DNA of 64,000 nt from the NCBI GenBank assembly GCA_049318805.1, contig JBMOFP010000003.1, positions 5,702 to 69,701 of the forward strand. The letters run 5' to 3'. The position numbers and the translations under genes were made by a program. The notes beneath the pieces are model-generated. The model did no database searches. It was not told the origin of the DNA and saw only the letters and a list, made by a program, of their open reading frames with translations. Below are positions 6,762 through 61,192 of the stretch, piece after piece. Numbering within the stretch: position 1 is the first letter of the stretch; each line of letters begins with the position of its first letter. The DNA comes from Bradymonadia bacterium (GTDB taxonomy: Bacteria > Myxococcota_A > Bradymonadia > UBA7976 > UBA1532).

Positions 6762-7292
6762 TCAGGGGGTGGCGAGCGCCTTCTCGACGGCGGCCGCGAG
6801 CTCCGGGGCGTCCGGGCGAACGCTGGACGGGAACCGGGCCACGACCTGGCCTTTGCGATCGACGACGAACTTCTCGAAGTTCCAGCCGATGTCCTTGCCC
6901 CCGCCCGCGGGGCTCCCGATGAGCGCTGCGTAGAGCGGGGTGCGCTTGGCGCCGTTCACGTCCTGCTTCTCGAGGAGCGGGAAGTCCACGTTGTACTTGG
7001 TGGAGCAGAAGGTCTGGATCTCCTGGGCGGTGCCTGGCTCCTGACCACCGAACTGGTTGCTCGGCACTCCGACCACCACGAGGCCCTTCGCCTTGTGCTG
7101 GGCGGAGAGCGCTTGGAGCCCGGCGTACTGCGAGGTGTAGCCGCAGCGGCTCGCCACGTTGACGAAGAGCACGGCCTTGCCCTGGAGCTGGGCGGCGGGG
7201 AACGGGGTGCCGTCCAACGCCTTGAGCTCCAATCGACCGAAGTCGACCAGGGCGAGGGCGGACGCGAGCAGGGCGGAGAGCACGAGGGTCAT
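6762..7292 (-). CDS. glutathione peroxidase
   Basis: A 176 aa C-terminal segment of the 6762-8813 ORF. GPx motifs: VASRCGYT (peroxidatic Cys), FPSNQFGGQEPG, WNFEKF. The ATG at 7292 forms an ATGA overlap with the upstream stop. Confidence 0.9.
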   Translation of the reverse strand: MTLVLSALLASALALVDFGRLELKALDGTPFPAAQLQGKAVLFVNVASRCGYTSQYAGLQALSAQHKAKGLVVVGVPSNQFGGQEPGTAQEIQTFCSTKYNVDFPLLEKQDVNGAKRTPLYAALIGSPAGGGKDIGWNFEKFVVDRKGQVVARFPSSVRPDAPELAAAVEKALATP

Positions 7293-9595: not shown

Positions 9596-9648
9596 GCCGT
9601 CGAGGATACTCTCGGGCGGGCGCGCGTTTCGTGGGAACCTCACGCGCC

Positions 9649-11565
9649 ATGTGCACCGTGCTGATCTTGCGCCACGCCCACCCCGTCTTTCCGCTGCTCA
9701 TCGCCGCCAACCGGGACGAGATGTTCGGCCGGCCGGCCACCGGGCTCGAGGTGCAAGGCGAGTCGCCCCGGGTGCTCGCCGGACGCGACCTGGAGCGTGG
9801 CGGCACCTGGATGGGCGTGACGGCGCGCGGCTTCTTCGCGGGGCTCACGAACCTGCGACCGACGGAGCGGCCCATGACGGCGCCGCGCTCGCGGGGGGAG
9901 GTCGTGCTGGCGGTGCTGCGGGCCGGGGAAGTCGGCGCGGCGTGCGCCTACCTGGACTCGCTGGCGCCCGCGGACTTCAACGGCGGGCAGCTCCTCTTCG
10001 GGGACGCCCGCGACCTGCGCGTCGCCTATTTCCGTCCTGACGCGCCGCGTGTGCGCGTGGAGCGTGTCCCGGAGGGGGTGCACGTGCTGCCGACCTCCGT
10101 GCTGGACGACCCGAGCTACCCGAAGGTCGGGCGTCTGCGGGCCGCCGCGCTGGACTTGCCCCGCGACTGGCCGGGGGTGCGCGCACGCCTCATCGGCGCG
10201 CTCGCGAGTCATGTGCAGCCCGAGGCGAGCGCCGTGTCTGGGGGCGGCTCGCTCTTCGAGCCCGAGACACTCCGCGCGCTCGACGCCGTGTGTATCCATC
10301 TGCCCGGGTACGGCACCCGCTCGGCGCTCTTGCTCGCCGTGCGCCCGGGGGCCGTGGACCACGTCGAGTCCTCGAACGCACGCCCGTGCGAGGGGCCCTT
10401 CGTCGACTACACCCCGGTCTTGAACGCGCCCTCGCCCGAGCGGGTCGAGACGCTCGTGCTCGGCGCGGGCCCGTCGGGGCTCGCGGCCAGCGCGGCGCTG
10501 ACGGAGGCCGGCCTGCCCCACCTGCTGGTCGACCGGGGCGGGCGGGTCGGGGACTCGTGGCGACGCCACTACGACCGGCTTCGGCTGCACACCCTGAACC
10601 GGTGGTCGTCGCTGCCCGGCCTGCCCTTCGATGAAAACGCGCCCGAGTGGCGCACCCGCGACGACTTCGTGGCCTATCTCGAGACCTACGCGCGCACCCT
10701 CGGCGTGCGGCCCCGGCACGGCATCGAGGTGCGCGGCATACGGCGGCGCGAGGGCGACGGCTTCCGGGTCGACACCAGCGGCGGCCCCATCGACGCGCGC
10801 TTCGTCGTCGTGGCCACGGGCCTGAATCGGGTGCCCCATCGCCCGCCCATGCCGGGCGAGGGCACGTTCCGCGGCACGATCGTGCACAGCGGTGAACACC
10901 GCTCCGCCGTAGGCTTCCAGGGGCGACGCGTCGCCGTCTTCGGCATCGGCAACTCCGGCGCGGAGCTCGCCCTCGACTTCGCCGAGCAGGGGGCGTCGGT
11001 GCTGCTCGTGTGGCGGAGCCCCGCGTGGATCGTGCGCCGCACACGGTTCGGCATCCCGTCCCAGCGCATCGGGGTGTTCTACGAGACCTTGCCGAAGCGC
11101 CTCGCGGGCCCCGTGAGCTTGTTCATGGCGCGCCGGGCCGGTGTGCCGCCGAGCCTCACCGGCATCCCGCAGCCCGAGCAGAGCCCCGTCGATCTGGTGC
11201 GTGGCCACGGCCGGGTGCCGCTCATCGACATCGGCACCGTCGCCGCCATCGAGGACGGTCGGATTCGCACCGTCGAAGGCCTCCAGACCTTCACGCCCGA
11301 CGGCTTCGTCGACGCGCGGGGTGAGGCCCACGCCGTCGACCATGTGGTGCTCGCGACGGGGTGGCGCCCGGGGCTCGAGGCCCTGCTGCCCGACCCCGCG
11401 TTGCGCGCCGAGGTGCTCGACGAACGCGGTCGACCGCGCCTTCACGCGCAGGTCCACGCGGGGGGCCTCGCGTTCGTCGGTTTTGCGAACCGCATCGGCG
11501 GGGCGCTCCGAGAGGTCAGCCTCGAGACCCCTCGGCTGCTGGCCTCGCTTCGGCAGGCAACGTGA
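9649..11565 (+). CDS. NRDE-family (TANGO2-like) domain fused to an FAD/NAD(P)-binding flavin monooxygenase-like domain
   Basis: ATG at 9649 (MCTVLILRHAHPVFPLLIAANRDE, the NRDE signature). From about aa 260 there is a Rossmann motif LVLGAGPSGLAASAAL and an FMO-like second dinucleotide motif VAVFGIGNSGAELA. Confidence 0.75.
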   Translation: MCTVLILRHAHPVFPLLIAANRDEMFGRPATGLEVQGESPRVLAGRDLERGGTWMGVTARGFFAGLTNLRPTERPMTAPRSRGEVVLAVLRAGEVGAACAYLDSLAPADFNGGQLLFGDARDLRVAYFRPDAPRVRVERVPEGVHVLPTSVLDDPSYPKVGRLRAAALDLPRDWPGVRARLIGALASHVQPEASAVSGGGSLFEPETLRALDAVCIHLPGYGTRSALLLAVRPGAVDHVESSNARPCEGPFVDYTPVLNAPSPERVETLVLGAGPSGLAASAALTEAGLPHLLVDRGGRVGDSWRRHYDRLRLHTLNRWSSLPGLPFDENAPEWRTRDDFVAYLETYARTLGVRPRHGIEVRGIRRREGDGFRVDTSGGPIDARFVVVATGLNRVPHRPPMPGEGTFRGTIVHSGEHRSAVGFQGRRVAVFGIGNSGAELALDFAEQGASVLLVWRSPAWIVRRTRFGIPSQRIGVFYETLPKRLAGPVSLFMARRAGVPPSLTGIPQPEQSPVDLVRGHGRVPLIDIGTVAAIEDGRIRTVEGLQTFTPDGFVDARGEAHAVDHVVLATGWRPGLEALLPDPALRAEVLDERGRPRLHAQVHAGGLAFVGFANRIGGALREVSLETPRLLASLRQAT

Positions 11566-48558: not shown

Positions 48559-48684
48559 GGGCTCATCAAAGCCGGATTGCCCCGAGTCGGCAACAGGGGT
48601 CGGAACTTGAATTATTTATGTGATTCTGTATCCTCGCCGACGCCGGGGGGCGGGACGTCCACACGCGACGAAACAGGGGTCAAC

Positions 48685-51600
48685 ATGGTCTCGGGAAACC
48701 GACGGGTGCTGGGTTGGGTGTTGGGTGCGTCCGCCGTCCTGGCCTCGGGGGCCGCGAACGCCGCGCCCCCGCCCGGTTTTGTGGAACAAGAGATCCCCGG
48801 ACCTTGGAGCGAGGCCTCGGGCCTCGAGTGGGGCTCCGACGGGCGCATGTACGTCGTGGAACGCGGCGGTCGGGTCTGGCTCGTCGAGAACGGCGTGAAG
48901 TCCCAGACCCCGTTCATCGACCTCGCGGCCGAGGTCGGCGGATGGCGGGACTTCGGGCTGCTCGGCTTCGCGCTGCACCCCAACTTCGACCAGAACGGCT
49001 TCGTCTACCTGTACTACGTGGTGGACCACTACCACCTGTCGTGTGAGACCAACCCGGCCCAGGCGAAGTGCACGCCTTACAACCCCGCGGCCAACGAGTA
49101 CTTCCAGCCGACGATCGGTCGAATCACCCGGTACACGGCCGATCCGGCGACGGGACGCCGCACGGTGCTGCCGGCCTCGCGGCGCGTACTGCTCGGTGAG
49201 ACGATCTCGACGGGCGTGCCGATCCTGCACCAAAGCCACGGCACGGGTCAGCTCGTCTTCGGCGAGGACGGCACGCTCCTGGCCAGCTCCGGAGACGCCG
49301 GGAGCTACAACCGGGTCGACATCGGCGGGCAGGTCGCCAACGACGACACCTACCGTGTGCAGGCCCTCGCGGAGGGCATCCTCCGGCCTGAAGAGGACAT
49401 CGGCGCGATGCGCTCGCAGTTCCTCGGCTCGCTGGACGGCAAGCTCCTCCGCATCGACGCCGACACCGGCGACGGCTTGAGCTCGAACCCCTTCTACGAC
49501 GCCGCGAACCCCCGCTCCGCGCAATCGCGTGTGTGGGCGCTCGGCCTGCGGAATCCTTACCGTTTCTCGCGGAAACCCGGCACCGGCGGACACACCCCCG
49601 CCGAGGGCGATCCCGGGGTCTTCTACCTGGGCGACGTCGGCTGGGGCTCGGCGGAGGACCTGCACGTCATCGATGGGCCGGGCCGCAACCTGGGCTGGCC
49701 GATCTTCGAGGGCCTGACCGCGCACGGGCAGTACTCGGCGGCCAACGTGAACAACATGCACGCGCCCAACCCGCTCTTTGGCGTCAACGGTTGCGCGCAG
49801 CAGTACCTGTACTTCCGAAACCTCATCGTCCAGGAGAACCGCAGCGGCATCGGCTCGTGGCCGAACCCCTGCAACGCCGCGGTTCAGATCCCCGACAGCT
49901 GGACGGACGGGGCCGGGCGGACGTGGACATACCGCAAGTTCATGCACACCCGGCCGCCTCTGGACTGGCGCGGGAGCGCGCGCGTCGCGACCTTCGACGG
50001 CGCGGGCAACGCGACCACGATCGGCGTCGGTGCGGCCGGCTCGCCGGTCACGGGCACGAGCTTCAGCGGGAACGCGGCGACCGGCGGTGTCTGGTACACC
50101 GGCTCGGACTTCCCGCCGGAGTGGCGCAACCTCTACTTCTTCGCGGACTACGGCGGTGGCTGGATCAAGGCCGGCGTCTTCAACGACGACGACCAGCTCT
50201 CGGCGGTGCGTAACTTCATCGATCCGGGCAACGCCGTCGTCTTCGTCAGCACCTCGCCGACCGCGGGCGGCATCTACTACGTGAAGTGGGGTGACCGCGT
50301 CCGCAAGGTCACCTACAGCCCCGGCAACCGCGCCCCCGTAGCCTCCGCGATCCCGAGCGTCCAGTTCGGCCCCGGCCCGCTGACGGTCAGCTTTCAGAAC
50401 ACGTCGAGCGACCCGGAGAACGGCGCGCTGACGTACGCGTGGGACTTCGGCGATGGCACGACCAGCACCGACGCCTCTCCGACCCACGTCTTTGCGTCCG
50501 AGGGCGGTGGCCCGACGGCCTACTCCGTGCGTCTGACCGTGCGGGATCCGCAGAACGCGGTCGGCGACACCACGGTCGTGGTCACGGTCGACAACACACC
50601 GCCCGCGGTCGAGATCACCTCGCCCCGTGAGGGCACCGAATACCCCATGGACACACAGCGCATCTTCGACCTCACGGCCGACGTGTCCGATGCGGAGTCC
50701 CCGGTCGGGGCGCTCGAGTGTGTTTGGAACATCAATCTGCACCATAACAACCACGTGCACGGCGAGGCCGCCATCCACACCTGCGACGCGCAGGCGGTGG
50801 TGACCCCGGCCGGCTGCGACGGCAACGTCTACTTCTACCGCGCGACGCTCTCGGTGACGGATCCCGAGGGCCTCGTGACGGTCCGCTCCGTCGACCTGCT
50901 CCCGGACTGCGAGAACGACCCGCCGTCGGTGCGAGGCGAGGAGCTCTCGGTCGTGCAGGGCGAGAGCGGGTCGGTCGATCCCAGCCTGAACGATTGGGAC
51001 CGGGACGGTTTCCTCGACCTCACGACGGTCGTCGTCACGCGCCAGCCGAACCACGGCTTCGTCAACGTGGACCCCGAGACCGGCGTGATGACCTACTCCC
51101 ACGACGGGACCGTCAACCTCGAGGACGACTTCGCGTACACGGTGGACGACGACGACGGCGCGACCTCGGCCGAGGCGAACGTGCTCGTGACCGTGTCGCG
51201 GCGCACACCCGTGGTGACGATCTCCGCGCCGAACGACGGCGGCTTCGTCACGGGCATGGCCTTCTACGTCGCCTGGTCCGTGGACTGGGTGCCTCCGGGC
51301 TTCGTCTTCAGCGACGTGTACTTCGGCGGCGCGCTCGTGGCCTCTCTGCCGGCCGGGGCGGGCACGGCGAAGGTCGTGGCGCCCGCGCCCGGCTTCTACG
51401 GACTCAAGGTCGCCCTCGCCGACGCCAATCACACGATCCACGACGGCGGCTTCTCGTCCATCACCTTCGAGGTCCGCGACGCCGACTTCGACGGGGACGG
51501 TGTGCTCGATCTCCAGGACGCCGCGCCCGCCAATCCCCGCATCTGCCGCGACGTCGACGCCGACACCTGCGACGACTGCGCGCGGACCGTCGCCGATCCG

Positions 51601-52350
51601 TTCAACGACGGGCCGGACAAGGACTTCGACGGCCTGTGCAATGCGGGCGACTTCAACGGATGCGACGTGGACAACGGTGGCTGCGACGACAACGCGACCT
51701 GCACGCCCACACCCGGCGCGCGGGTCTGTCGATGTGTCGCGGGCTTCGCGGGCAACGGGGTCTCGTGCACCTCCGTCGACGTCTCGTTCTCGACGGCCGG
51801 CGGCCTGAAGCTCCCGATTCCCAACGACGGGTACGACGGCACCGAGAAGTCGATGGTCTGTCAGGCCTTCGAGGTCCCGGCCTTGACCATCAACAACCAG
51901 ACCTACAACCGCGTCTCGGGGCGCATGAGCGTCGACGTGGCCCTGAACCACACCTACGCCGGCGACCTGACGGTCAAGGTCTTCGGCCCCGCCGGCGACG
52001 CCCTCGCGGTCGTGAATCGGCCCCGAAGCAATGCCGCGGACAATGGCGTGGACCTGCCCCGTGGCGATGGCTCGGACCTGGTTGAGACCCATCCGATCCG
52101 TTTTGTCGACGGTGCGGCCATCTCGGCGGAGAACATGGGCCGTTACCTGGCCGACGACCTCGCGATTTGCCGCGACAACGCCGAGTGCCAGCAGCGCGCG
52201 AACCGCGGGAGCGCCGCGACCTTGAGCAGCTTCGGCGGCTTCACCTCCAAGGTCGCCAACGGCACCTGGAAGGTCTGCGTGGGCGACGCCCACCCTGCGG
52301 ACATCGGGACCCTCGAGTCGGTGTCGTTCACGTTCCGACGCAAGCGCTGA
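48685..52350 (+). CDS. giant secreted PQQ-dependent sugar dehydrogenase (SGDH beta-propeller) fused to PKD, EGF-like and proprotein-convertase P-domains
   Basis: ATG at 48685 with RBS aggggt. Signal peptide VLGWVLGASAVLASGAANA. SGDH motifs (GLLGFALHP, GLRNPYRFS). PKD (YAWDFGDGT). EGF-like (CTPTPGARVCRCVAGFAGNGVSC). P-domain (HTYAGDLTVKVFGPAGDA). Confidence 0.85.
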   Translation: MVSGNRRVLGWVLGASAVLASGAANAAPPPGFVEQEIPGPWSEASGLEWGSDGRMYVVERGGRVWLVENGVKSQTPFIDLAAEVGGWRDFGLLGFALHPNFDQNGFVYLYYVVDHYHLSCETNPAQAKCTPYNPAANEYFQPTIGRITRYTADPATGRRTVLPASRRVLLGETISTGVPILHQSHGTGQLVFGEDGTLLASSGDAGSYNRVDIGGQVANDDTYRVQALAEGILRPEEDIGAMRSQFLGSLDGKLLRIDADTGDGLSSNPFYDAANPRSAQSRVWALGLRNPYRFSRKPGTGGHTPAEGDPGVFYLGDVGWGSAEDLHVIDGPGRNLGWPIFEGLTAHGQYSAANVNNMHAPNPLFGVNGCAQQYLYFRNLIVQENRSGIGSWPNPCNAAVQIPDSWTDGAGRTWTYRKFMHTRPPLDWRGSARVATFDGAGNATTIGVGAAGSPVTGTSFSGNAATGGVWYTGSDFPPEWRNLYFFADYGGGWIKAGVFNDDDQLSAVRNFIDPGNAVVFVSTSPTAGGIYYVKWGDRVRKVTYSPGNRAPVASAIPSVQFGPGPLTVSFQNTSSDPENGALTYAWDFGDGTTSTDASPTHVFASEGGGPTAYSVRLTVRDPQNAVGDTTVVVTVDNTPPAVEITSPREGTEYPMDTQRIFDLTADVSDAESPVGALECVWNINLHHNNHVHGEAAIHTCDAQAVVTPAGCDGNVYFYRATLSVTDPEGLVTVRSVDLLPDCENDPPSVRGEELSVVQGESGSVDPSLNDWDRDGFLDLTTVVVTRQPNHGFVNVDPETGVMTYSHDGTVNLEDDFAYTVDDDDGATSAEANVLVTVSRRTPVVTISAPNDGGFVTGMAFYVAWSVDWVPPGFVFSDVYFGGALVASLPAGAGTAKVVAPAPGFYGLKVALADANHTIHDGGFSSITFEVRDADFDGDGVLDLQDAAPANPRICRDVDADTCDDCARTVADPFNDGPDKDFDGLCNAGDFNGCDVDNGGCDDNATCTPTPGARVCRCVAGFAGNGVSCTSVDVSFSTAGGLKLPIPNDGYDGTEKSMVCQAFEVPALTINNQTYNRVSGRMSVDVALNHTYAGDLTVKVFGPAGDALAVVNRPRSNAADNGVDLPRGDGSDLVETHPIRFVDGAAISAENMGRYLADDLAICRDNAECQQRANRGSAATLSSFGGFTSKVANGTWKVCVGDAHPADIGTLESVSFTFRRKR

Positions 52351-52376
52351 CGCCCCGACCCGGCACGCGCGTAGGC

Positions 52377-54485
52377 TCAGGGCGCGACCGTCGGCTCCCC
52401 CTGCGTCGAGCTCCGACGCGCCTCGCAGGCCTCGAGCTGCTTGCGGAGGATGACCGCGTCGAGGGCCGTCTGCCGCAGTAGGCGCTGGCGAGCGGACTCG
52501 TCGGGACCGTCCAAGCGCAGGTCGGGTGGGCCCGAGGGCCGCACGAGGTCGCGCACGGGGTCGGACGGCGGCGGGTCCCCGAAGGGCACGGGACGCGCGC
52601 TCAGCTCCAGCACACGTTGCTCGAGCTGAGCGCGGAGCGCCCGCTCGCGCACCAGGGACTCGTCGAGGCGCTCCACGTCGTCTCTGCACGTGTCCAGGGG
52701 GTTCTCGACGCTGGATGGGGTCGGTGCCGGCTCGGGGTCCTGAACCAGAGCGACCTCCTGCGCGTAGCGCTGGGTGACCGCGGCCAGCGCTTCTCGCAGC
52801 GCGTCGGAGCTGCGATTGCGCGCGGCCTCGGCGGCCTTGAGGCGATGGGTGAGCTCTTGCACCTCGGCCCGACGCTCCGCGGCCTCGCGCTCCGTCGACT
52901 CGAGCCGGAGTCGGTCCTGGGCGTCGAGTCGTCGGAGCGCTCTCAGTCGCCGAATCTCGGAAACCGCGGCCTCGTGTCGGGCGTTCACCTCGTCCAGAGT
53001 CTCCAACAGCGCCGAGGCCTCGCCCGCGCCCGATCCGCTCTCGAGCCGTGTCTCCACGGTTCGACGCGCATCGTCGAGGGCCTGCGACCCGAGCGTGCTG
53101 AGGCCCGCCTGCACGCTCTCCGAGTGCTGCCGATACGCCAGCAGCGCGGCCGTGCCCGCCGTGGCGACGAACGTGAGCAGCATCGCGGCCCGCCACCGCA
53201 GCGTGCGGGTCGCGGCGACGTTGGCCGCCTGCAGATAGGCGAGCTCCGCCTCCGTGAGGTCCGGCTGCCCCGCGGCGCGCGCCGTGGCTCGAGCGAGCGC
53301 TCCCCCGGTCGGTAGGCGGGCGCGAGGCCGCCCGGCGTCCTCCCACGCCCGCGCCGCTTCATAGAGCGGTCTGCGGTCGAGCAAGCCGTCCACCCAGGTG
53401 AGGTCCAGAGTTCGAGCGAAGACCCGGTTCCTGACGGCGAGCGTGCCGCCGCGCTCGCAGGCCGCCCCGGACATGAACAACGCGCTCTGCACGGGATCGC
53501 CCGCCACCGAGACGACCGCGTGACCGGCGCGCACCCGCCGGTACAGGTGCAGAACGCGCATCGCGGGCGCCTCGACCCAGTCCCGCTCGAGGAACGCCGC
53601 CGCGCTCGCCAGCAAAGGGTGGGCGTGGGGTCCGGTGCGCGGGAACAAGCGCTCGCTCTCCGCCGCGACGCGCGTGACCCAGTCCGCGGCCGATGGGGGC
53701 GAGGTCGGCGTCGGTGCACTCCCGAGGGCGCGCAGCAGCGCCATCGTCATGTACGGGTGGCCGGCGGTTTCGTCCCACACGGCGTCGAGCAGCGCGCCGG
53801 CCTCGGCGGCGCTCCACGCTTCCAGGGCGGGCCGCGCCTGCTCGAGCGAAGCGCGAGAGAAGTCGCCGAGGGGCACGGGCGTGGCGATGTCGAAGGGGTT
53901 GTTCGTCGAGTCGGGGACCAGGTCTTCGGTCCGCGCGAAGCCGACGAGGCAGAACGTGAAGCGCGCCCAGTCGGGGTTGGAGGCCCGCTCGTTGTGCATC
54001 GCCCGCAGGCTGCCCAGGAACTCACCGCGAAAGCGCAGTCGCGTGAGCACGTTGATCTCGTCCAGGAAGAGCACGAGCGGCCGCGCATCGGACGGGAGCA
54101 AGAGGTCCGAGACGAAGCGCCGAAACCGGCCCACACCCCGCTCGGGACAAGCGTTCCAGAAGGCCGTGACCCGGGCGACCCCGAGGTCCGCGGCGCGTGC
54201 GACCTCGACCGCCAGGGAGAGATACCAGCGATCCTGGGCGGCCTCGCCCTCGGCGACGTCGGCGCCGATGGCGGTGAGGTCGATGGCCACGCACCGCCGG
54301 CCCGCGTCGGCCTCGAGACGGCGTTGGACCTCGAGGCGCAGGCTCGTCTTCCCGACCTGACGCGGGGCGAGGACGTGGCAGTGCTCCCCGGCCTTCAGGG
54401 CCTCGTAGAGCCGGTCGTCGGCGTCTCTCCGCACGTAGAGCGCGTTCGGCGGCAGCGCGCCCCCCACGTGGAGCGCGCGGCTCAA
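52377..54485 (-). CDS. AAA_35-like P-loop NTPase with C-terminal TM helix and long coiled-coil (system gene 2)
   Basis: TTG at 54485 overlaps the gene-1 stop (TTGA). The N-terminus LHVGGALPPNALYVRRDADDRLYEALKAGEHCHVLAPRQVGKTSL resembles what I recall of the AAA-like (PF14516-type) family N-terminus. Walker B LVLFLDEINVL. TM helix WRAAMLLTFVATAGTAALLAY. The following roughly 250 aa are heptad-rich and charged. Confidence 0.75.
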   Translation of the reverse strand: MSRALHVGGALPPNALYVRRDADDRLYEALKAGEHCHVLAPRQVGKTSLRLEVQRRLEADAGRRCVAIDLTAIGADVAEGEAAQDRWYLSLAVEVARAADLGVARVTAFWNACPERGVGRFRRFVSDLLLPSDARPLVLFLDEINVLTRLRFRGEFLGSLRAMHNERASNPDWARFTFCLVGFARTEDLVPDSTNNPFDIATPVPLGDFSRASLEQARPALEAWSAAEAGALLDAVWDETAGHPYMTMALLRALGSAPTPTSPPSAADWVTRVAAESERLFPRTGPHAHPLLASAAAFLERDWVEAPAMRVLHLYRRVRAGHAVVSVAGDPVQSALFMSGAACERGGTLAVRNRVFARTLDLTWVDGLLDRRPLYEAARAWEDAGRPRARLPTGGALARATARAAGQPDLTEAELAYLQAANVAATRTLRWRAAMLLTFVATAGTAALLAYRQHSESVQAGLSTLGSQALDDARRTVETRLESGSGAGEASALLETLDEVNARHEAAVSEIRRLRALRRLDAQDRLRLESTEREAAERRAEVQELTHRLKAAEAARNRSSDALREALAAVTQRYAQEVALVQDPEPAPTPSSVENPLDTCRDDVERLDESLVRERALRAQLEQRVLELSARPVPFGDPPPSDPVRDLVRPSGPPDLRLDGPDESARQRLLRQTALDAVILRKQLEACEARRSSTQGEPTVAP

Positions 54486-56503
54486 GCCGACCCCCCGGCG
54501 TAGCGCTTCAGGTAGGTCGACCAGACCGGACACAGCGGAAGCGCGGAGCCGGCGCCGTCCTGGGCGCAGAGCCCTTCGGCGAAGATCGCCTCCTGCACCG
54601 CGCGCGGACGCAGCTTCGGCTCGAGCTGCGGCAACCCGGCCAAGGACGGGGCCACGTCGCTCCGTGTGACCAGCCGCGTGAACTGTAGGTCGATGAGGCT
54701 TCGCAGGGTCTGGGCGCGCTCCAGCGGTGCATTCAGCCGCGCGTCCAGCTCGGCATCGTCCGGGCCACCGCTGAGGAGCGCGCTCACCAGGTGCGGTCCA
54801 CCCCCGACCGCGGCCCGAATGCGCGCGCAGGCGTCGACGGCGGTGACCGCGGGGGCCCACCGCCGTAGGACCGCGTCGAGCTCGCTCGGGCTCAGGTCCG
54901 CCAGGAAGTGGCGCTGCGCCAGGTCGAAGAAGCTCGACTCCGTGCGTGTGCCCGGTCGGTTCAGGCGCGTCACCCAGGCCGTCGGTGTCGCCGAGGTGGT
55001 CACGACGACCTGGAGGCGTCGCCAGGTCGCGCGACCCTCACGGGCCCAATGGGCCGCCCGACGAAGCAGCCCGAAGAGCTCGAGGTCGAGCGCGGCGTCG
55101 CTCGTCGGTAGGTCGCCGGGGTTCTCCACCACGAGGGTGATCCAAGGCTCGGGTGTGGCGTCGATGAGGGCTTCGAAGGCCACCATCAAGCGTTGCATCG
55201 GGGCGTCCACGTCGAGCAGGGACCAGGCCTCGTGGGCGCTGCGTCCGTCCCGCCCGAGGCCCCGCGCCAGCTCGTTCACGAGGGAGTGCGCGAAGCCCTC
55301 GAGGGTGTCGCAGGCGAGGGCGCCGGGCTCGAGTGTGAGTCGGCGACCGGCGCGGTCGCCCGCGACCTCGAGCAGCCGCTGGGCCCAGGAGGTCTTGCCG
55401 AAGCGACGCGGGGAGAGCACGAGCAGCGGCTGTTCGGGGTCCAGGAGGCGCGCGGCGACCTGCGGGTCGAGGTCCCACGGCACCGGCGCGGGCCTCAGCG
55501 TGGGGGGCGGTGTCGGTGGGCTCGAGAGGCCGGCATCGGCGCTGGCGCGGGGCGCCCGTGGCCCCTGCGCGACCGGGGGCGGGCGAGGCGGGGGCACGGG
55601 CCCGCGTGGACTGCCCGCGGGGGGGACCGCCGCGAGGTGCGCGAGCAGGGGCTCGAGCTGCTCGTGGCGCCCCTGGGCGTACCAGACCGGGAAAATCCGA
55701 TACGTCTGCAGCGCGCGGGAGCGTTCGAGCCACGCGGCGTCCCCAGGGTACTCCAGCAGCGCGTAGTGAAAGCACCCCGCGTCGCCCAGGTCGGCGGCGA
55801 CGCGGCTCAAGAGCAGCAGAGTGCGATCGACCCCGAGGCTGCACCCCACGAAGAGGATCGGCCGGGCGCTGAACAGGCGCCGCAGCACCTGCGGCAGCGG
55901 CTTGTCCAGGTCGACCTGGTCGGCGACCTGACTGCCGTAGCAGGCGTCGTACTCCGAGAGGGTCAGCACCCGGTTCGCCCGGTCCTCGATGTCGCCGTGC
56001 AGCTTGAGCAGCGCGCGGCGGCCACCGTCGAGCGCGGCGCGAAACGGCCACGCCGACCGCCCAGGCACCACGGTCTCGAAGCGTCGGCCGGCCGACTCGA
56101 AGACACTCTCGAGCAAGCGGTCGAAGTTCGTCGTCACCACGGGACCACGGGCGAGCGCGGGCAGGTGTTTCACGGCGCCGTCGAGCGGCCGGTCTTGCAG
56201 GGCGTTCGGCCCGTAGACCTTCTCGAGTCGTTTGTGGAAGCTCGAGGCGCCCGCGGAGCGTTCGACACACTCCGCAGCCTCTTCGTACTCGCCTGCGGTC
56301 AGATGTAACTCGACCTGAGACGCGACGCCGTAGCGCGCCCCCAGCGCCCTCAACAGCGCGCTCCAGCTCGGGAGCCCGAAGGGCACACCGAGACCCGCAC
56401 CCACCCAGGGCACGACACCCTGGCCGCTGCCGACCAGCTCCAGCAGCGCGGGCAGGTGCAGGTCGTTCTCGCCGAGGGCGAGGAAAGCGTCGTCGGGTGC
56501 CAT
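54482..56503 (-). CDS. SIR2_2-like NADase domain fused via a Pro-rich linker to a divergent AAA_35-like P-loop NTPase (system gene 1)
   Basis: ATG at 56503 (MAPDDAFLALGEN...). SIR2_2 motifs VVPWVGAGLGVPFGLPSWSALL, VVTTNFDRLLE, LLKLHGDIED. Linker PPAGSPRGPVPPPRPPPVAQGP... Walker A LVLSPRRFGKTSW. Walker B-like LVVENPGDL, lacking the usual DE. Confidence 0.75.
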   Translation of the reverse strand: MAPDDAFLALGENDLHLPALLELVGSGQGVVPWVGAGLGVPFGLPSWSALLRALGARYGVASQVELHLTAGEYEEAAECVERSAGASSFHKRLEKVYGPNALQDRPLDGAVKHLPALARGPVVTTNFDRLLESVFESAGRRFETVVPGRSAWPFRAALDGGRRALLKLHGDIEDRANRVLTLSEYDACYGSQVADQVDLDKPLPQVLRRLFSARPILFVGCSLGVDRTLLLLSRVAADLGDAGCFHYALLEYPGDAAWLERSRALQTYRIFPVWYAQGRHEQLEPLLAHLAAVPPAGSPRGPVPPPRPPPVAQGPRAPRASADAGLSSPPTPPPTLRPAPVPWDLDPQVAARLLDPEQPLLVLSPRRFGKTSWAQRLLEVAGDRAGRRLTLEPGALACDTLEGFAHSLVNELARGLGRDGRSAHEAWSLLDVDAPMQRLMVAFEALIDATPEPWITLVVENPGDLPTSDAALDLELFGLLRRAAHWAREGRATWRRLQVVVTTSATPTAWVTRLNRPGTRTESSFFDLAQRHFLADLSPSELDAVLRRWAPAVTAVDACARIRAAVGGGPHLVSALLSGGPDDAELDARLNAPLERAQTLRSLIDLQFTRLVTRSDVAPSLAGLPQLEPKLRPRAVQEAIFAEGLCAQDGAGSALPLCPVWSTYLKRYAGGSA

Positions 56504-56654
56504 CGCAGTCACGAATCTCCGCACAGGAGATCGCCGAGGTCCAATTTGGTCTGATGCCCGCGCCCTCGGGCCTGAAGTTCGTTGCGGAACGACCGTCCAG
56601 AGAAGATTCTCCGCGCACTCAGAGCAACCCACCCTGCCCTCAAGGAGCTTCCCC

Positions 56655-57875
56655 GTGCGCACAGTGAATCTGGTCTCGCGTTCCCTCCTCGTTCTCGCCG
56701 TGGGCGCGACCTGCGTCGTCGGTCTCTGCCCGGCCGCCGAAGCGGCGCGGCGCACCAGCCTCGCCGGCAATCTTTTGCTCGAGGACGCGGACGACGTCTT
56801 CCCGTTCCCGCAGCTCTCGACGAAGTACGCGCGGTCCGTGAGCTTCGACTACGGCGAGGCCAAGGGCAGCGGCAACGGCCTGCTGTTGATGGGCGACACG
56901 TACCAGGCGTGGGGCATCGCGCTGCATCGCGGCGATACGACGGACCCGCAGGGGCTGTCCATCGACCACGACCTCGTGCGCCTCGGGGACCCGTCGGGCA
57001 ACGTGAACGACGGGACGTTTCCGACCCCGCTGACGATCGTGGACTTTCTCTATGCCTCGGCCAACCCGGGGGACGGCTCCGGCTGGGGGCTCCGCATCTC
57101 GCTCGGCAATGGCAGCCAGTCCCAAGACCCGAACGGTGACCCCAAGGAGTCCGGCGCCGACCAGACCTACCTGGCCCTGACTGCGGGCTACAGCGCCGCG
57201 GGCAGCGACCTCGCCTATGACCTGGCCGGTTCGCTCGTCTACTCGACCGGCACGCAGCTCGCGAACGGCAAGGAGGTCAAGAGCGGCACCGCCATCGACC
57301 TCACTGTGACCGGTCGCGGCAGCATGTCCCTGGCCGGCGAGAAGGACACACGCCTGGGGCTCCTGGGTCAGCTCGGCGTGAAGGACGACACCAGCTCTCA
57401 GACGGTCGACCCCAAGTTCGACGACGTGGCCCGCTCCATCTTTCTGCTCGCGGGCGCCGGTCCCGTCGTGAAGGTCGCGCAGCGCATCCAGCTCGCGGCC
57501 TACGGCTTCATCGGCGCGACCCTGAACAGCGCGGACCCGAACAGTGAAGGCGACGACGACCAGACCGACATCGCGTCCTACGTGCTCCCGGGCGTGAACC
57601 TCGCCACCGAGGTCCAGCTCCGGGACTGGCTGTTCTTCCGTACGGGCGGCGAGTACACCTTCGCCATCCGCACCGAGGACTCGGGCGACAACGCGAATGC
57701 GCGGAAGGCCTCGGATCGGCAGGGCACCTTCGGGTGGAACGCGGGCATCGGCCTCGTCTTCGAGAACATCACCTTCGACGGCGCCCTCGCCCACGGCTTC
57801 CTGACCCAGGGGCCGGACTTCATCGGCGGCGACTCGGCGCTCTTCGGCATGTTCTCGGCGCGCGCCAAGTTCTGA
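56655..57875 (+). CDS. outer-membrane beta-barrel (porin-like) protein
   Basis: Signal peptide LLVLAVGATCVVGLCPAAEA. Alternating beta-strand pattern. C-terminal ...FSARAKF (terminal Phe). Confidence 0.65.
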   Translation: MRTVNLVSRSLLVLAVGATCVVGLCPAAEAARRTSLAGNLLLEDADDVFPFPQLSTKYARSVSFDYGEAKGSGNGLLLMGDTYQAWGIALHRGDTTDPQGLSIDHDLVRLGDPSGNVNDGTFPTPLTIVDFLYASANPGDGSGWGLRISLGNGSQSQDPNGDPKESGADQTYLALTAGYSAAGSDLAYDLAGSLVYSTGTQLANGKEVKSGTAIDLTVTGRGSMSLAGEKDTRLGLLGQLGVKDDTSSQTVDPKFDDVARSIFLLAGAGPVVKVAQRIQLAAYGFIGATLNSADPNSEGDDDQTDIASYVLPGVNLATEVQLRDWLFFRTGGEYTFAIRTEDSGDNANARKASDRQGTFGWNAGIGLVFENITFDGALAHGFLTQGPDFIGGDSALFGMFSARAKF

Positions 57876-57934
57876 CCCTCCGCGCGGTCCCTCGGACTCG
57901 CGCCGAACGCCGCAGGTTGTGCTAGACATTGGGC

Positions 57935-60900
57935 ATGACGAAGCGGGGTCAACGGAAAACACTCTCGATCCCGGGGGGCGGCCGCGCCGTGCTCCGGGAC
58001 CTCGGCCTCTGGACTGCGCTGCTCCTGGCCGCCTGTGGCAGCGACACGACCACGGGAGGCGCGCCACCGGGCGGGGACGACCCGGACGCGGACCTGGCGG
58101 ACCTCGACCAGGGCGGCTTGCCGGACGCGTACGTCGCACCCGGGCAGGACGCCGGCGGGGACGGCGGGCGGCCGGGTGTCTTCGGCGATCCTTGTCGCAA
58201 CGCACGCGAGTGTGAGTCCGGCTTCTGCATCGAGAACCCCGGGGGGGGCAACATCTGCAGCAGTCGGTGCGCGGGGGACTGCCCCACGGGCTTCGAATGC
58301 CTGCCCATCGGCAACGATGGCCCCGACCGCACCTTCGTGTGCATTGCCGACCGGGGGGAGCTGTGCAAGCCGTGTCAGACGAACCAGGAGTGCGACGACA
58401 ACGAGGACCTGTGTATCCCGATCGGCAACGGCTCCTACTGCGGTGAGGACTGCAGCACGGGGCGCGCGTGCCCGGACGGGTACAGTTGTGAGGATGTGCA
58501 GGTCGCGGGCGCCGGCGGGGAGCCGATCACTGGCCGGCAGTGTATCCCCGCGAACGGCGGCGGGTGTTTGCCCTGTAGGGACGCCGACGGCGACAAGTTC
58601 GGCGACGGCGGTGACTGCCGAGGCTTCGATTGCGACGACGGGGACCCGACGGTCTACGAAGGGGCGCCGGAACTGTGTGACGGCATCGACAACAACTGCA
58701 ACTCCATGGCCGACGAGCCCCAGCTCCTCGAGGCGGCCCCCGTCGGCATGAGCTGCTTCGACCAGGGGGTGTGCCGCGGCGCGTTCGTGCAGTGTTCGGG
58801 CGGCGAGTGGCGGTGCGGTTACCCGGACACCTACGAGGACGCGGTCGAGCGCTCTTGCGATGGCCTCGACAACGACTGCGACGGACAGGTCGACGACGAC
58901 TTCGACTTCCAGAACGACGCGAACAACTGCGCGCGCTGCGGACAGCGCTGCGAGTTCCAGAACGCCGCGGGCGAGTGCCTCGACGGGCAGTGCGAGCTCG
59001 GGGCGTGCGTCGCCGGCTTTCACGACGCCGACCGCAACGCGGGCAACGGGTGTGAGTACGGTCCCTGTCAGCTCACGGCCGCGGGCGTCGAGCAGTGCGA
59101 TGGGATCGACAATGACTGCGACGGCGGCATCGACGAGGACGTGCGGCGGAGCTGCGGCATCGCCGGGGGCCTCTGCCAGATGGGTGTGCAGACCTGCGTC
59201 GATGCGCAGTTCGGGCCGTGCGAAGGGGTCCGCGAACCCTCCGAGGAGCAGTGCGACACGCTCGACAATGACTGCGACGGCAGCATCGACGAGGCCTACA
59301 ACCTGCTCGAGGATGCGCTCAACTGCGGGCGTTGCGGGAACCCCTGCGACATTCGCAACGCGCTGCCCCGGTGCGCGGGCGGCGCGTGCGTCGTCGCGCA
59401 GTGCTTGCCCGGCTGGAACGACGCGAACGGCGACCAGAACGACGGGTGCGAGTACGCGTGCGACCTGACGGAGGATGGCTTCGAGGTCTGCGACGGCGTC
59501 GACAACGACTGCGACGTGAGCGTGGACGAGGGCATCGACCCCGCCGTCGACATCGACAACTGCGGCGGCTGCGGGCGTATCTGCGAGTTCGCGAACGCGG
59601 CACCCGTCTGCATCGACGGCGATTGTCGCCTCCGGGAGTGCGCGCCGGGCTTCTACGACATCAACGGCAATCCGGCCGACGGCTGCGAGTACGCCTGTGT
59701 CTTCCAGTCCCCGGCCGACGATCCGGACCCCGCCTTCGTGGACGCGAACTGCGACGGCATCGACGGTGAGATCGGCCGCGCGATCTTCGCCTCGCCGCGC
59801 GGGAACGACCTCAACCCCGGCACCAAGGAAGCCCCCGTCGGCACGTTGGCGCGGGCCATGGACCTGGCCCTCGATCCGGGTCTGGCCGAGCCCAAGTACG
59901 TGCTCGCCGGTGAAGGGGTCTTCGAAGCGACGCTCCGTTTGCGCTCGGGGGCGCATCTGCACGGCGGTTATCGCCCCGAGAGCGGGTGGGCGCGTTCGGT
60001 GAACTACGAGACCGTGGCCCGTGGTCGCGGTGTCGGGGCCGTGGCGGACGGCCTCGACCGGCCCACCTCCGTGAACTTCATCACGCTCGAGGGCACCTCG
60101 GCCGCCGCCGCCGGGGCCAGCAGCTACGGCCTCTGGGTGCGCGGCGGCGCCGACCTGCTCACGGTCGTCGGCGGTCGGATCATCGCCGGAGACGGCGGCC
60201 CCGGGCTCGCGGGCAACGGGGGCCTCCCGGGTGCGGGGGGCAACTCCGGCGCGCGCGGCAGCGACGGCTGTGACCAGGGCTTCCTGGGCACGGGCGGATG
60301 CACGGCCCAGGGCGGCTTCGGCGGTCCGGCGGTCGCGTGCGCGGCCGGTGACACCGGCGGGGCCGGACGCGGCGGCAACGCGGGCTCCGGGGGCGACCGC
60401 GGCGGGGACGGCGGCGCGGGCAACGCTTCAGCGAACGGCGTGGGCGGTGGCGCCGGCGGACCGGGCGCGAACGCGGGTCGGCACAGCATCGGGTGCGGCT
60501 TCCTCGGTCTGGGCTGCTGCGGCGAGCAGAAGGGGGCGAACGCGGGCATCGGGGGCAACGGCCTCGGCGGCCCCGACGGAGACGCGGGTCCCGGAGGCCC
60601 GGCCTTCGGCGGCATTGGCGGCGACGGGCTCTACGCCCCCGCCCCGGGCGGCGGTGGCGGCTTCGGGCGCGCCGGCGGTGGCGCGGGCGGCGGCGGCGGT
60701 GGCGGCGGCGGGAACTGCGACATCGTGTGCTGCAACAGTGACGTGGGCGGCGCAGGCGGCGGCGGCGGCTCCGGCGGCTGCGGGGGCACGGGCGCAAACG
60801 GTGGCGGCGGCGCGGGTGGCTCCTTTGCGGTCTTCCTCATCGACGCGTGGCCTCGCCTGGCGCCGTTCGAGGTCCGCACGGGCGCCGGCGGTCGCGGCGG

Positions 60901-61192
60901 CGACGGCGGACCGGGCGGTCAGGGCGGACCCGGCGGCGCGCCGGGCGGCGGCGGCAACGGCAACCAGGCGGGCGGCAACGGCGGCAACGGCGGCAGCGGC
61001 GGTCCTGGTGGGCGCGGCGGCGCCGGCGGCGGCGGCGGCGGTGGCCCGTCCGTGGGCATCGTGCGGCTGGGCAACCTCGGCCCCGGCCCGGCGATCGAGG
61101 TCGTCTCGTTTGTGATCGGCGCGCCCGGTCAGGGCGGCGCCAGCCAGGGGATCCCGGGCACGCCGGGTGTCACCGCCAACGTCTGGCCCTGA
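57935..61192 (+). CDS. MopE-like putative metal-binding Cys-repeat lipoprotein with a long Gly-rich C-terminal region
   Basis: Lipobox LLLAACGSD. At least six tandem CDG(I/L/V)DNDCDGxxDE motifs (Myxococcus cysteine-rich repeat). A beta-helix-like region follows. About 300 aa of GGxGG repeats, two CC dyads, then an Ig-like end. Confidence 0.75.
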   Translation: MTKRGQRKTLSIPGGGRAVLRDLGLWTALLLAACGSDTTTGGAPPGGDDPDADLADLDQGGLPDAYVAPGQDAGGDGGRPGVFGDPCRNARECESGFCIENPGGGNICSSRCAGDCPTGFECLPIGNDGPDRTFVCIADRGELCKPCQTNQECDDNEDLCIPIGNGSYCGEDCSTGRACPDGYSCEDVQVAGAGGEPITGRQCIPANGGGCLPCRDADGDKFGDGGDCRGFDCDDGDPTVYEGAPELCDGIDNNCNSMADEPQLLEAAPVGMSCFDQGVCRGAFVQCSGGEWRCGYPDTYEDAVERSCDGLDNDCDGQVDDDFDFQNDANNCARCGQRCEFQNAAGECLDGQCELGACVAGFHDADRNAGNGCEYGPCQLTAAGVEQCDGIDNDCDGGIDEDVRRSCGIAGGLCQMGVQTCVDAQFGPCEGVREPSEEQCDTLDNDCDGSIDEAYNLLEDALNCGRCGNPCDIRNALPRCAGGACVVAQCLPGWNDANGDQNDGCEYACDLTEDGFEVCDGVDNDCDVSVDEGIDPAVDIDNCGGCGRICEFANAAPVCIDGDCRLRECAPGFYDINGNPADGCEYACVFQSPADDPDPAFVDANCDGIDGEIGRAIFASPRGNDLNPGTKEAPVGTLARAMDLALDPGLAEPKYVLAGEGVFEATLRLRSGAHLHGGYRPESGWARSVNYETVARGRGVGAVADGLDRPTSVNFITLEGTSAAAAGASSYGLWVRGGADLLTVVGGRIIAGDGGPGLAGNGGLPGAGGNSGARGSDGCDQGFLGTGGCTAQGGFGGPAVACAAGDTGGAGRGGNAGSGGDRGGDGGAGNASANGVGGGAGGPGANAGRHSIGCGFLGLGCCGEQKGANAGIGGNGLGGPDGDAGPGGPAFGGIGGDGLYAPAPGGGGGFGRAGGGAGGGGGGGGGNCDIVCCNSDVGGAGGGGGSGGCGGTGANGGGGAGGSFAVFLIDAWPRLAPFEVRTGAGGRGGDGGPGGQGGPGGAPGGGGNGNQAGGNGGNGGSGGPGGRGGAGGGGGGGPSVGIVRLGNLGPGPAIEVVSFVIGAPGQGGASQGIPGTPGVTANVWP
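60160..61065 (+). repeat. GGN-codon low-complexity region (Gly-rich, PGRS-like) within the 57935-61192 CDS
   Basis: Long runs of ggcggcggc / ggcggtggc codons. The overlapping antisense and frame-shifted ORFs in the track (60124-60615, 60180-60797, 60231-61115, 60428-61249) are artefacts of this repeat. Confidence 0.6.

Follow-up and report, generated by a model that had tools for sequence, protein, structure and literature searches.

A membrane-spanning AAA_35 NTPase with a helical tail and its SIR2-bearing paralogous partner: a candidate split, paired-NLR-like locus in a Bradymonadia bacterium

The 64,000-nt stretch analysed here (the window; positions 5,702 to 69,701 of contig JBMOFP010000003.1, assembly GCA_049318805.1, from a Bradymonadia bacterium) carries on its minus strand two overlapping genes for paralogous NTPases of the Pfam family AAA_35. 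The upstream gene 1 (the 'A' partner) joins its NTPase to a SIR2 domain, and gene 2 (the 'B' partner) continues from its NTPase into a single transmembrane (TM) helix and a helical, proline-interrupted tail. We infer that the locus is a STAND-type conflict system, here split and membrane-spanning. With moderate confidence, we read it as a split, paired-NLR-like conflict module, serving immunity or programmed cell death, in which the tail is the extracytoplasmic part of the membrane-spanning half. An earlier, sequence-only reading of this DNA had described gene 2 as a P-loop NTPase with a long coiled coil on the opposite face of the membrane, possibly a sensor of envelope stress or phage entry or a structural ruler. 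It had left out of account that gene 2 is paired with a paralogous NTPase upstream, and this pairing tells more about the locus than any other feature.

The features of gene 2 are listed below by coordinates and by residues of its product; AF2 denotes an AlphaFold2 model, with confidence given as the predicted local distance difference test score (pLDDT).

52377..54485, minus strand: gene 2, 702 aa plus stop; AAA_35 NTPase, single TM helix, predicted helical/Pro-rich periplasmic tail.
54482..54485, minus strand: TTGA overlap of 4 nt between the gene 2 start codon and the gene 1 TGA stop, read from the sequence.
53376..54485, minus strand: cytoplasmic NTPase, helical and winged-helix module, residues 1–370; AF2 pLDDT 80–95.
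54345..54368, minus strand: Walker A with K46, by motif alignment.
54057..54077, minus strand: Walker B with D142/E143, by motif alignment.
53190..53375, minus strand: conserved pre-TM cytoplasmic helical motif, residues 371–432 (RPLYEAARAWEDAGR...DLTEAELAYLQAA...TRTLRWR), ending in a basic cluster.
53133..53189, minus strand: single TM helix, residues 433–451, AAMLLTFVATAGTAALLAY; the sole Kyte-Doolittle peak above 1.6.
53028..53132, minus strand: post-TM helix, then a Ser/Gly-rich stretch, residues 452–486; AF2 helix to 482, pLDDT < 50 at 484–486.
52743..53027, minus strand: main helical rod with weak heptads, residues 487–581; AF2 helices 487–518 and 522–581, pLDDT 50–74.
52701..52742, minus strand: Pro-rich disordered linker 1, residues 582–595, DPEPAPTPSSVENP; pLDDT < 50 at 583–593.
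52596..52700, minus strand: helix 2 with clear heptads and Cys600, residues 596–630 (AF2).
52500..52595, minus strand: Pro-rich disordered linker 2, residues 631–662; pLDDT < 50 at 631–661.
52407..52499, minus strand: helix 3 with Cys687, residues 663–693 (AF2).

The P-loop NTPase noted earlier in gene 2 was confirmed. Pfam AAA_35 (PF14516) matches residues ∼15–254 with E=2.4e-21 and 76.3 bits, above the curated gathering threshold of 27; no other domain was matched, and the homologues are all annotated PF14516. Walker A (40-APRQVGKT-47) and Walker B (LVLFLDE) are intact and occupy invariant alignment columns, and a GHP motif at about residue 243, the GxP of the helical domain, is conserved. 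The AF2 model, built on an 11-sequence alignment (mean pLDDT 75.7), is confident over the N-terminal 430 residues. In a Foldseek search of the PDB, the cytoplasmic module matched Orc1 (2v1u), Cdc6 (1fnn), SSO1545 (2fna, TMt 0.57), Avs3 (8dgc), Avs4, CED-4 (2a5y) and the plant TIR-NLR RPP1 (7dfv), with probability 1.0 and 10–15% identity to the listed Orc/STAND structures. By these matches, AAA_35 is a switch NTPase of Orc/STAND type that has helical and winged-helix domains. By its modelled fold, the gene 2 module falls in the STAND / Orc-Cdc6-like AAA+ class, within which STAND proper and an Orc/Cdc6-type both fit. PDB sequence searches gave no match for the tail alone (E ≤ 10) or for the family profile (E ≤ 0.01).

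Between the NTPase and the membrane lies the conserved pre-TM motif, with invariant or near-invariant columns at W381, G385, R386, D409, E414 and R427. Directly after its terminal TRTLRWR comes the hydrophobic segment, with a Kyte-Doolittle value of 1.73, three K/R among the eight residues before it and one among the eight after. The AF2 model runs one continuous helix, residues 412–482, through the membrane. The TM helix proposed earlier is borne out by homologues, since a single TM occupies the matching position in each of the 11 examined, nine of them orthologues of 708–742 aa and the other two more distantly related. The same comparison over a wider set disposed of the idea that this arrangement is unusual. 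An exhaustive phmmer search with residues 1–451 against 1.84 billion cluster representatives (50% identity clusters) returned 7,773 clusters at E ≤ 1e-3 and 2,910 at E ≤ 1e-30. We analysed 153 representatives, namely the best hits of this search and five earlier homologues; a hydrophobic span follows right after the NTPase module in 125 of them, so that a TM after the NTPase is the family rule.

The charge distribution around this span bears on topology. Among the 115 single-pass relatives, in which its median length is 21 aa, the 15 residues before it contain 4.8 K+R vs 2.8 in the 15 after (Wilcoxon p=1e-17); positive charge is higher on the N-side in 101 and on the C-side in eight. This positive-inside bias indicates a predicted N-in/C-out topology for the AAA_35-TM family. 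The C-out orientation is independently supported, because the TonB_C, peptidoglycan (PG)-binding and amidase domains found after the TM in relatives work in the periplasm. The tail of gene 2 would thus lie on the opposite face of the membrane from the NTPase, as the sequence-only reading had supposed.

What stands behind the TM varies widely in relatives: WD40, PQQ or PD40 propellers, TPR, polytopic membrane domains, a 20-Cys Sel1 array, PG_binding_1/2 in a Nostoc relative, and TonB_C at the very end of P0097. AELKRQ-rich helical tails of 80–280 aa occur in ∼30 of the 115 single-pass relatives, and the B proteins of Sorangium cellulosum and Chondromyces apiculatus have ∼200-aa E/R/A/K-rich tails that are far more rod-like than that of the window. 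Because both the TM position and helical tails recur, the window architecture is one recurrent variant of the family rule. In P0082, P0087, P0117, P0120, P0144 and P0175, a polytopic domain with ∼8–10 hydrophobic segments replaces the single TM after the NTPase.

The window looks myxobacterial and has a G+C content of 72%; many spurious long open reading frames (ORFs) cross the tail region; the minus-strand frame of ORF 52377–54860 was picked out by codon-position G+C. Third-position G+C (GC3) in this ORF is 0.54–0.65 over the first 300 nt and 0.83–0.92 from ∼54560 to the stop. Over the tail it stays at 0.83–0.91 throughout, showing that the coding frame is maintained there; ORFs 48616–53346 (minus) and 52617–53315 (plus) failed this filter and were rejected as alternative genes. 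The true start of gene 2 is the TTG at 54485, after a Shine-Dalgarno-like GGGGGG run, and a metagenomic (JGI) protein 99% identical to gene 2 (P0001) was independently called at the same 702 residues. Counted from 54485, the interval 52377–53500, earlier assigned to the membrane-tethered coiled coil, therefore corresponds to residues ∼329–702. It does contain the tail; its upper bound adds ∼100 cytoplasmic residues ahead of the TM.

The tail itself (residues 452–702) comprises 251 aa, with 14% R, 13.5% A, 12.7% L and 11% E, and had been described as ∼250 heptad-like residues. Scored per helix in a single register against shuffles, that description fits two segments. In residues 487–581, L/I/V/M/F occupy 0.44 of a/d positions vs 0.30±0.04 in shuffles (p=0.002), an occupancy weak for a canonical coiled coil; in residues 596–630 the occupancy is 0.70 vs 0.46 (p=0.009). 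It fails in residues 452–486 (p=0.37) and 663–693 (p=0.99), where the heptad signal is absent, and a sliding-window heptad score barely exceeds that of shuffles (0.65 vs a 95th percentile of 0.60). Nor is the tail one continuous 250-residue coiled coil; it is broken by the two Pro-rich disordered linkers. The model predicts a ∼95–130-residue helical rod and two ∼30–35-residue helices, split by these linkers. Two cysteines, C600 and C687, are present; matches of the tail to SMC, LmuB, JetC and NDC80 coiled-coil regions were at noise level, and no meaningful tandem repeats were found in its DNA.

Taken together, the hydropathy, AF2 and heptad results argue for a real TM helix and a real tail that is helical and in part heptad-periodic. 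We think it very unlikely that we have over-read non-functional low-complexity or disordered sequence, or a hydrophobic segment that is not a true TM helix. Such a view could point to the a/d occupancy of 0.44, the missing heptad signal in two of five helices, a tail entropy of 3.26 vs 3.50 bits in the NTPase, ∼45 Pro-rich residues at pLDDT < 50, and a window TM peak (1.73) that is the weakest of the orthologue set. However, it does not account for the GC3 of 0.83–0.91, for the conservation of TM position, ∼21-aa length and charge asymmetry over ∼125 divergent representatives, or for what orthologues retain of the tail.

BLAST aligns just the N-terminal 60% of gene 2 with its orthologues, and in the orthologue alignment identity to the window protein is 52–57% in the NTPase module and 17–22% in the tail. 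All the same, orthologues keep the TM and, at ∼20% tail identity, the layout of helix, Pro linker, helix, Pro linker and helix. Their C-termini carry a five-Cys motif, and one nearly invariant Cys aligns with C687 of the window. Tail length is held at 245–284 aa in close orthologues and ranges over 176–284 aa among all paired short-tail loci examined. Against the 99% identical relative, the NTPase shows 0 nonsynonymous and 7 synonymous changes and the tail four and two respectively (Fisher p=0.02). Two tails deserve mention in their own right. Over its first ∼390 residues, P0004 matches P0002 at 100% identity; from just ahead of the pre-TM motif to the end, it is 96–100% identical to P0006. 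This mosaic is either a natural swap of TM and tail between lineages or a chimeric metagenome assembly. The tail at L026 (contig JBPOHC010000529.1 of a metagenome-assembled genome, MAG) contains four Cys and two copies of an exact internal repeat, LVTANVRASEAAAQATALNAS, and tails may grow by such internal duplication.

On the model, the window tail looks more like a rod or spacer, perhaps oligomerising, than like a specific ligand-binding domain. A tail helix of ∼95–130 residues would span roughly 14–19 nm; given this reach, its form as a Pro-hinged rod and the lack of a binding domain, the tail would most likely serve as a ruler, contact probe or oligomeriser. A plainer alternative is that the TM is a mere anchor and the tail a passive spacer or oligomerisation stalk, with sensing in the cytoplasm, e.g. 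by the NTPase/winged-helix module or partner A detecting incoming phage DNA or proteins at the inner membrane. The window tail would suit this role, being compositionally simple, of low AF2 confidence, without a recognisable ligand-binding domain and fast evolving with conservative changes; moreover, 12 of the 115 single-pass relatives have < 60 aa after the TM. Yet most relatives invest 400–1000 residues there (WD40, TPR, Sel1, PG-binding, TonB_C, amidase), the same post-NTPase position is the sensor in cytosolic STANDs, and the conserved pre-TM motif and continuous helix through the membrane suggest coupling. We therefore consider a purely passive tail improbable.

The case for a conflict module is carried by gene 1, which has the following features.

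54482..56503, minus strand: gene 1, 673 aa; SIR2 plus AAA_35.
55619..56503, minus strand: SIR2 NADase domain, residues 1–295; Pfam SIR2_2 (PF13289), E=5e-22.
Residues 298–340: disordered Pro-rich linker.
54491..55483, minus strand: divergent AAA_35 NTPase with helical and winged-helix domains, residues 341–671; Pfam E=3.5e-4, and AF2.

The start of gene 1, MAPDDAF at 56503, is fixed by orthologues (637–678 aa) and by a 97–99% identical relative of 673 aa, which overrule a 762-aa ORF from TTG (54482–56770, minus). No TM helix was found in gene 1. In its SIR2 domain, N126, D128 and H169 are invariant across 21 sequences; Foldseek matches the domain to KomC, ThsA, EfAvs5 and DSR2 (TM-scores 0.75–0.80), and PADLOC to ThsA, LmuA (2e-11) and Dsr1. 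The nearest non-orthologous relatives of gene 1 are SIR2-STAND-TPR proteins. Gene 1 is thus predicted to encode a defence-type SIR2 NADase with intact catalytic Asn/Asp/His. Its stop overlaps the gene 2 start by 4 nt, an arrangement predicted to couple their translation.

Direct BLASTP of gene 1 vs gene 2 is nearly blank (E=0.006, P-loop surroundings only), and their paralogy was therefore shown through Pfam and a profile-based alignment and tree. In a neighbour-joining tree of 26 NTPase modules, A-type and B-type modules are reciprocally monophyletic with mirrored internal topology. Because the two form separate, mirrored clades, the pair is ancient and co-diversified; these sequences place the co-diversification of the A and B lineages before the split of Myxococcota and cyanobacteria. 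The two lineages also differ in their Walker B motif, which is hhhhDE in 14 of 14 B modules and degenerate in 10 of 10 myxobacterial A modules, where one acidic residue is followed by N, S, A, G, R or H. Gene 1 itself keeps Walker A and has a degenerate Walker B, VVEN. In this respect A modules resemble the non-catalytic subunits of hetero-oligomeric AAA+ assemblies.

The pairing is widespread. Every close orthologous locus contains the two-gene unit with its 4-bp overlap; L001, L003, L004 and L029 show this overlap, and in 17 of 22 genome loci an AAA_35 partner gene lies immediately upstream. In distant Myxococcota and cyanobacterial loci, the effector of the A partner is Metallophos, TIR, Pkinase, HTH, or Trypsin+TIR after a Trypco1 gene. 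Judging from this domain content and from that behind the TM, the A effector and the B ectodomain both behave as swappable cassettes. Two or three AAA_35 modules in tandem, often followed by a TM, occur within one chain in 34 of the 153 representatives, and these fusions hint, Rosetta-stone fashion, that two modules may act together. Examples with a TM among representatives P0046–P0185 are P0047 and P0049–P0052; in P0054, a PAS domain lies between two modules.

Some loci of the family show further arrangements. At L032 (3404–10296 of plasmid pNsp_e of Nostoc sp. ATCC 53789, NZ_CP046708.1), a three-gene unit runs from Trypco1 through Trypsin_2+TIR_2+AAA_35 to AAA_35+TM+12 WD40+Amidase_3; RefSeq labels the last gene merely as N-acetylmuramoyl-L-alanine amidase. 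This Amidase_3, a cell-wall hydrolase, could be a second, extracytoplasmic effector. Relatives in cyanobacteria were found on 45 plasmids. At L027 (6001–9715, MAG contig CAWHDJ010000017.1), the B gene after a Metallophos-AAA_35 partner is broken into several frames (ORFs 5773–6642, 7188–8234 and 7607–9715) and represents either a pseudogene or assembly or sequencing frameshifts. L020, L023–L025 and L028 carry B-type AAA_35-TM-WD40 genes that nest in the B clade; upstream lies e.g. a family-2 glycosyltransferase gene.

From these data, we infer physical interaction of A and B, dependence on NTP and NADase activity, and propose the following course. B would be anchored in the inner membrane and extend its tail towards the peptidoglycan and outer membrane, with its ectodomain standing where cytosolic STANDs have their sensor repeats. 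The packing or oligomeric state of the tail would be altered by an event in the periplasm or envelope, for which a phage adsorbing or penetrating, an attacking competitor or predator, and damage to the cell wall are candidates. This change would be relayed by the continuous pre-TM/TM/post-TM helix to the B NTPase with its canonical Walker B DE, which would exchange nucleotide, oligomerise and nucleate co-assembly of the A partner. A would act as a helper-like subunit, since its Walker A is kept and its Walker B degenerate (EN). Clustered A SIR2 domains would then switch on NAD+ hydrolysis, leading to cell arrest or death, a step modelled on the filaments or tetramers of Avs5, ThsA, DSR2 and KomBC. 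The earlier suggestion of an envelope or phage-entry sensor fits this genomic context, i.e. a SIR2 effector-NTPase partner whose effector is swapped in relatives.

Several observations weigh against a conflict module with a sensing tail. In the window tail, heptads are weak, the pLDDT of the helices is just 50–74 in a monomer model, no recognisable binding domain was found, and sequence evolves two to three times faster than in the NTPase, which may simply reflect low constraint. Solo B genes without an adjacent A partner exist in cyanobacteria and in one deltaproteobacterial MAG (L020, L023–L025 and L028). The pair is not in a defence island; its locus is syntenic with L001, L003 and L029 despite flanking genes that are just 45–70% identical, and it diverges at a rate similar to these genes. 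Conserved synteny and similar divergence together suggest a gene inherited vertically within its lineage. The kinase and HTH outputs of some pairs would also be at home in ordinary signal transduction. No phage-borne relative was found, and PADLOC, NCBIfam and PDB sequence searches found no characterised homologue. For the window locus, a mobile defence island or a phage- or plasmid-borne cassette was rejected, given its synteny in relatives and the lack of phage matches, although cyanobacterial relatives do occur on 45 plasmids.

Much of this would suit a general trans-envelope signalling or developmental switch outside immunity, in which B reports envelope or cell-wall status or cell-cell contact to variable outputs. 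It can be likened to a one-pass receptor coupled to a STAND switch, with cell-cell contact in myxobacterial multicellular behaviour as one setting. Synteny and vertical inheritance, the missing defence-island context, the Pkinase and HTH outputs and the absence of relatives from phages all agree with such a switch, as do a distribution limited to multicellular or filamentous Myxococcota and cyanobacteria and the precedent of the bacterial STANDs MalT and AfsR, which are transcriptional regulators (PMC7159879). In contrast, the commonest outputs are SIR2, TIR, Metallophos and trypsin+Trypco1, with best matches to the defence effectors ThsA, ThsB, DSR2, KomC and Avs5; the swapping of effector cassettes on a constant scaffold is a signature of conflict systems; and a SIR2 NADase whose catalytic residues are intact is destructive as an output. 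We accordingly hold a non-immune switch to be unlikely, while giving it some weight, and retain the paired conflict module as the preferred reading.

The surroundings of the pair are as follows. Just 26 nt (52351–52376) separate the gene 2 stop from that of a convergent gene, 48124/48292–52350 (plus), for a GSDH/PKD/EGF-like protein of 1,350–1,400 aa, and a consensus scan found no terminator-like hairpin in this gap. A DNA-feature scan found no sigma-70-like promoters, and terminator-like sites were at shuffle level. At 57929–61192 (plus), the window encodes a protein of 1,087 aa in which Cys-rich 'CDGxDNDCDG' repeats are numerous and the C-terminus is long and Gly-rich; an orthologue of it has a weak MopE-like match. 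This protein and one of ∼406–455 aa without a Pfam match are both kept beside the gene pair in orthologous loci.

By itself the tail is a modest object; it is the mark of a large family, so far uncharacterised, whose members may carry out NLR-type signalling from the outside in. To our knowledge, characterised bacterial STAND/NLR-like immune proteins (Avs, bNACHT) all consist of one cytosolic chain and recognise phage proteins within the cell. In the AAA_35 family, the usual sensor position lies across the inner membrane, and the effector sits on a co-evolving paralogous NTPase. We put forward, tentatively and as possible rather than probable, that the A/B pairs of AAA_35 form a class of prokaryotic 'transmembrane NLR pairs' that is both large and ancient. 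In it, B would sense an extracytoplasmic cue (e.g. phage adsorption or tail penetration, a competitor's or predator's attack, or damage to peptidoglycan or outer membrane) through a swappable periplasmic ectodomain, in the window protein a helical rod measuring or touching the envelope, and relay it through the TM to nucleate a helper that bears the executioner, here a SIR2 NADase. Should this hold, STAND signalling from the outside in would have its first example, and sensor/helper NLR pairs would have a bacterial counterpart. Bacteria would then survey the periplasm and envelope with NLR-type switches, the pairs would offer a tractable prokaryotic model for sensor/helper NLR hetero-assembly, and many 'NTPase-TM-WD40' proteins of cyanobacteria, myxobacteria and actinomycetes would find an explanation. 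As a minimal version with a helical, Pro-interrupted tail only, the window protein is useful for asking what an ectodomain contributes as ruler, oligomeriser or ligand binder.

Among the papers found by our literature searches, the AAA_35 A/B pair is apparently undescribed, while the taxa, the effector toolkit and the idea of periplasm-facing STANDs were already known. Searches on membrane-anchored or paired bacterial STANDs and on myxobacterial SIR2/STAND defence gave nothing specific, full-text searches on AAA_35/PF14516 returned noise only, the underscore being ignored, and a 2026 Avs survey mentions neither AAA_35 nor A/B pairing. PADLOC and NCBIfam contain no model matching either NTPase module; their matches were to effector domains or to coiled-coil composition only.

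The closest known relatives in design are Avs1-5, bNACHT and SIR2-STAND (EfAvs5) proteins. Shared features are an NTPase of Orc/STAND type with its helical and winged-helix domains, destructive effectors (SIR2, TIR and others) that sit at the N-terminus and are switched on by oligomerisation, and a variable sensor position at the C-terminus; structural matches link Avs3/Avs4 to gene 2 and EfAvs5 to gene 1. They differ in being single cytosolic chains, whereas here effector and sensor reside on two paralogous NTPases, the NTPase is AAA_35 rather than NACHT, NB-ARC or Avs, and a TM separates it from the 'sensor' position, placing the latter outside the cytoplasm. Membership in Avs1-5 was rejected: NCBIfam Avs5 gives E=0.069 and 11 bits vs a cut-off of 1000 on gene 1 only, which is noise, and nothing on gene 2, and PADLOC Avs5 (E=0.012) is confined to the SIR2 part of gene 1. 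ThsA of Thoeris is a SIR2 fused to a SLOG (STALD) signal-binding domain, with ThsB as its TIR partner; the PADLOC match to ThsA covers SIR2 only (profile positions 25–225 of 478), and the C-terminal half of gene 1 is AAA_35. Likewise, the Dsr1 match of gene 1 is confined to the effector domain, and neither assignment was kept.

Lamassu also places a SIR2-type effector gene (LmuA) next to a coiled-coil ATPase gene (LmuB). However, LmuB is an ATPase of ABC/SMC type, cytosolic and bearing an arm of antiparallel coiled coil, and gene 2 is of Orc/STAND type with a TM; the PADLOC LmuB match (E=0.017–0.062) is compositional and confined to tail residues 467–578, the E=0.017 hit covering 489–578 only, and LmuB was dismissed, the NTPase being AAA_35 and not ABC. 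The Zorya complex (ZorAB with ZorC/D), like the B protein, is anchored in the inner membrane, faces the envelope and has a very long helical tail; it is proposed to pass phage-caused envelope perturbation to cytosolic effectors (PMC11890865). In contrast to gene 2, ZorAB is an ion-driven motor of MotAB type whose ZorB binds PG and whose long tail is cytoplasmic; it has no STAND NTPase and no sequence or fold relationship to gene 2. TolA and TonB share the single N-terminal-side TM anchor and the extended helical (TolA domain II-like) and Pro-rich (TonB-like) periplasm-spanning region, but lack a cytoplasmic NTPase and draw their energy from TolQR/ExbBD. The resemblance is one of layout only, as the window protein gives no TolA_III/TonB_C Pfam match at E ≤ 0.1.

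The conflict systems of multicellular bacteria (Kaur et al. 2020, PMC7159879) and the STAND sensors diversified by diversity-generating retroelements (10.1101/2023.09.22.558884) occur in the same taxa, Myxococcota and cyanobacteria, and draw on the same toolkit of TIR, SIR2, Metallophos, kinase and trypsin+Trypco1. That some STAND-linked sensors face the periplasm is an idea found there too, the retroelement-diversified sensors having predicted periplasmic lectin domains (Doré et al., 10.1101/2023.09.22.558884). These are, however, ternary vWA-MoxR systems or single-chain nSTAND/NACHT proteins; AAA_35 is unmentioned in the main text of either paper, and term searches of PMC7159879 for 'paired', 'two STAND' or 'tandem STAND' found no such NTPase arrangement. 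The other comparison is with eukaryotic NLR pairs (RGA5/RGA4, the NRC network, NAIP-NLRC4). The window system differs from these in being prokaryotic and of independent origin and in having a membrane-spanning sensor partner, and hetero-assembly is here suggested only by gene linkage, fusions and phylogeny. In both, adjacent paralogous STAND NTPases of co-diversifying lineages, one partner with a degenerate catalytic motif, split sensing and execution between them.

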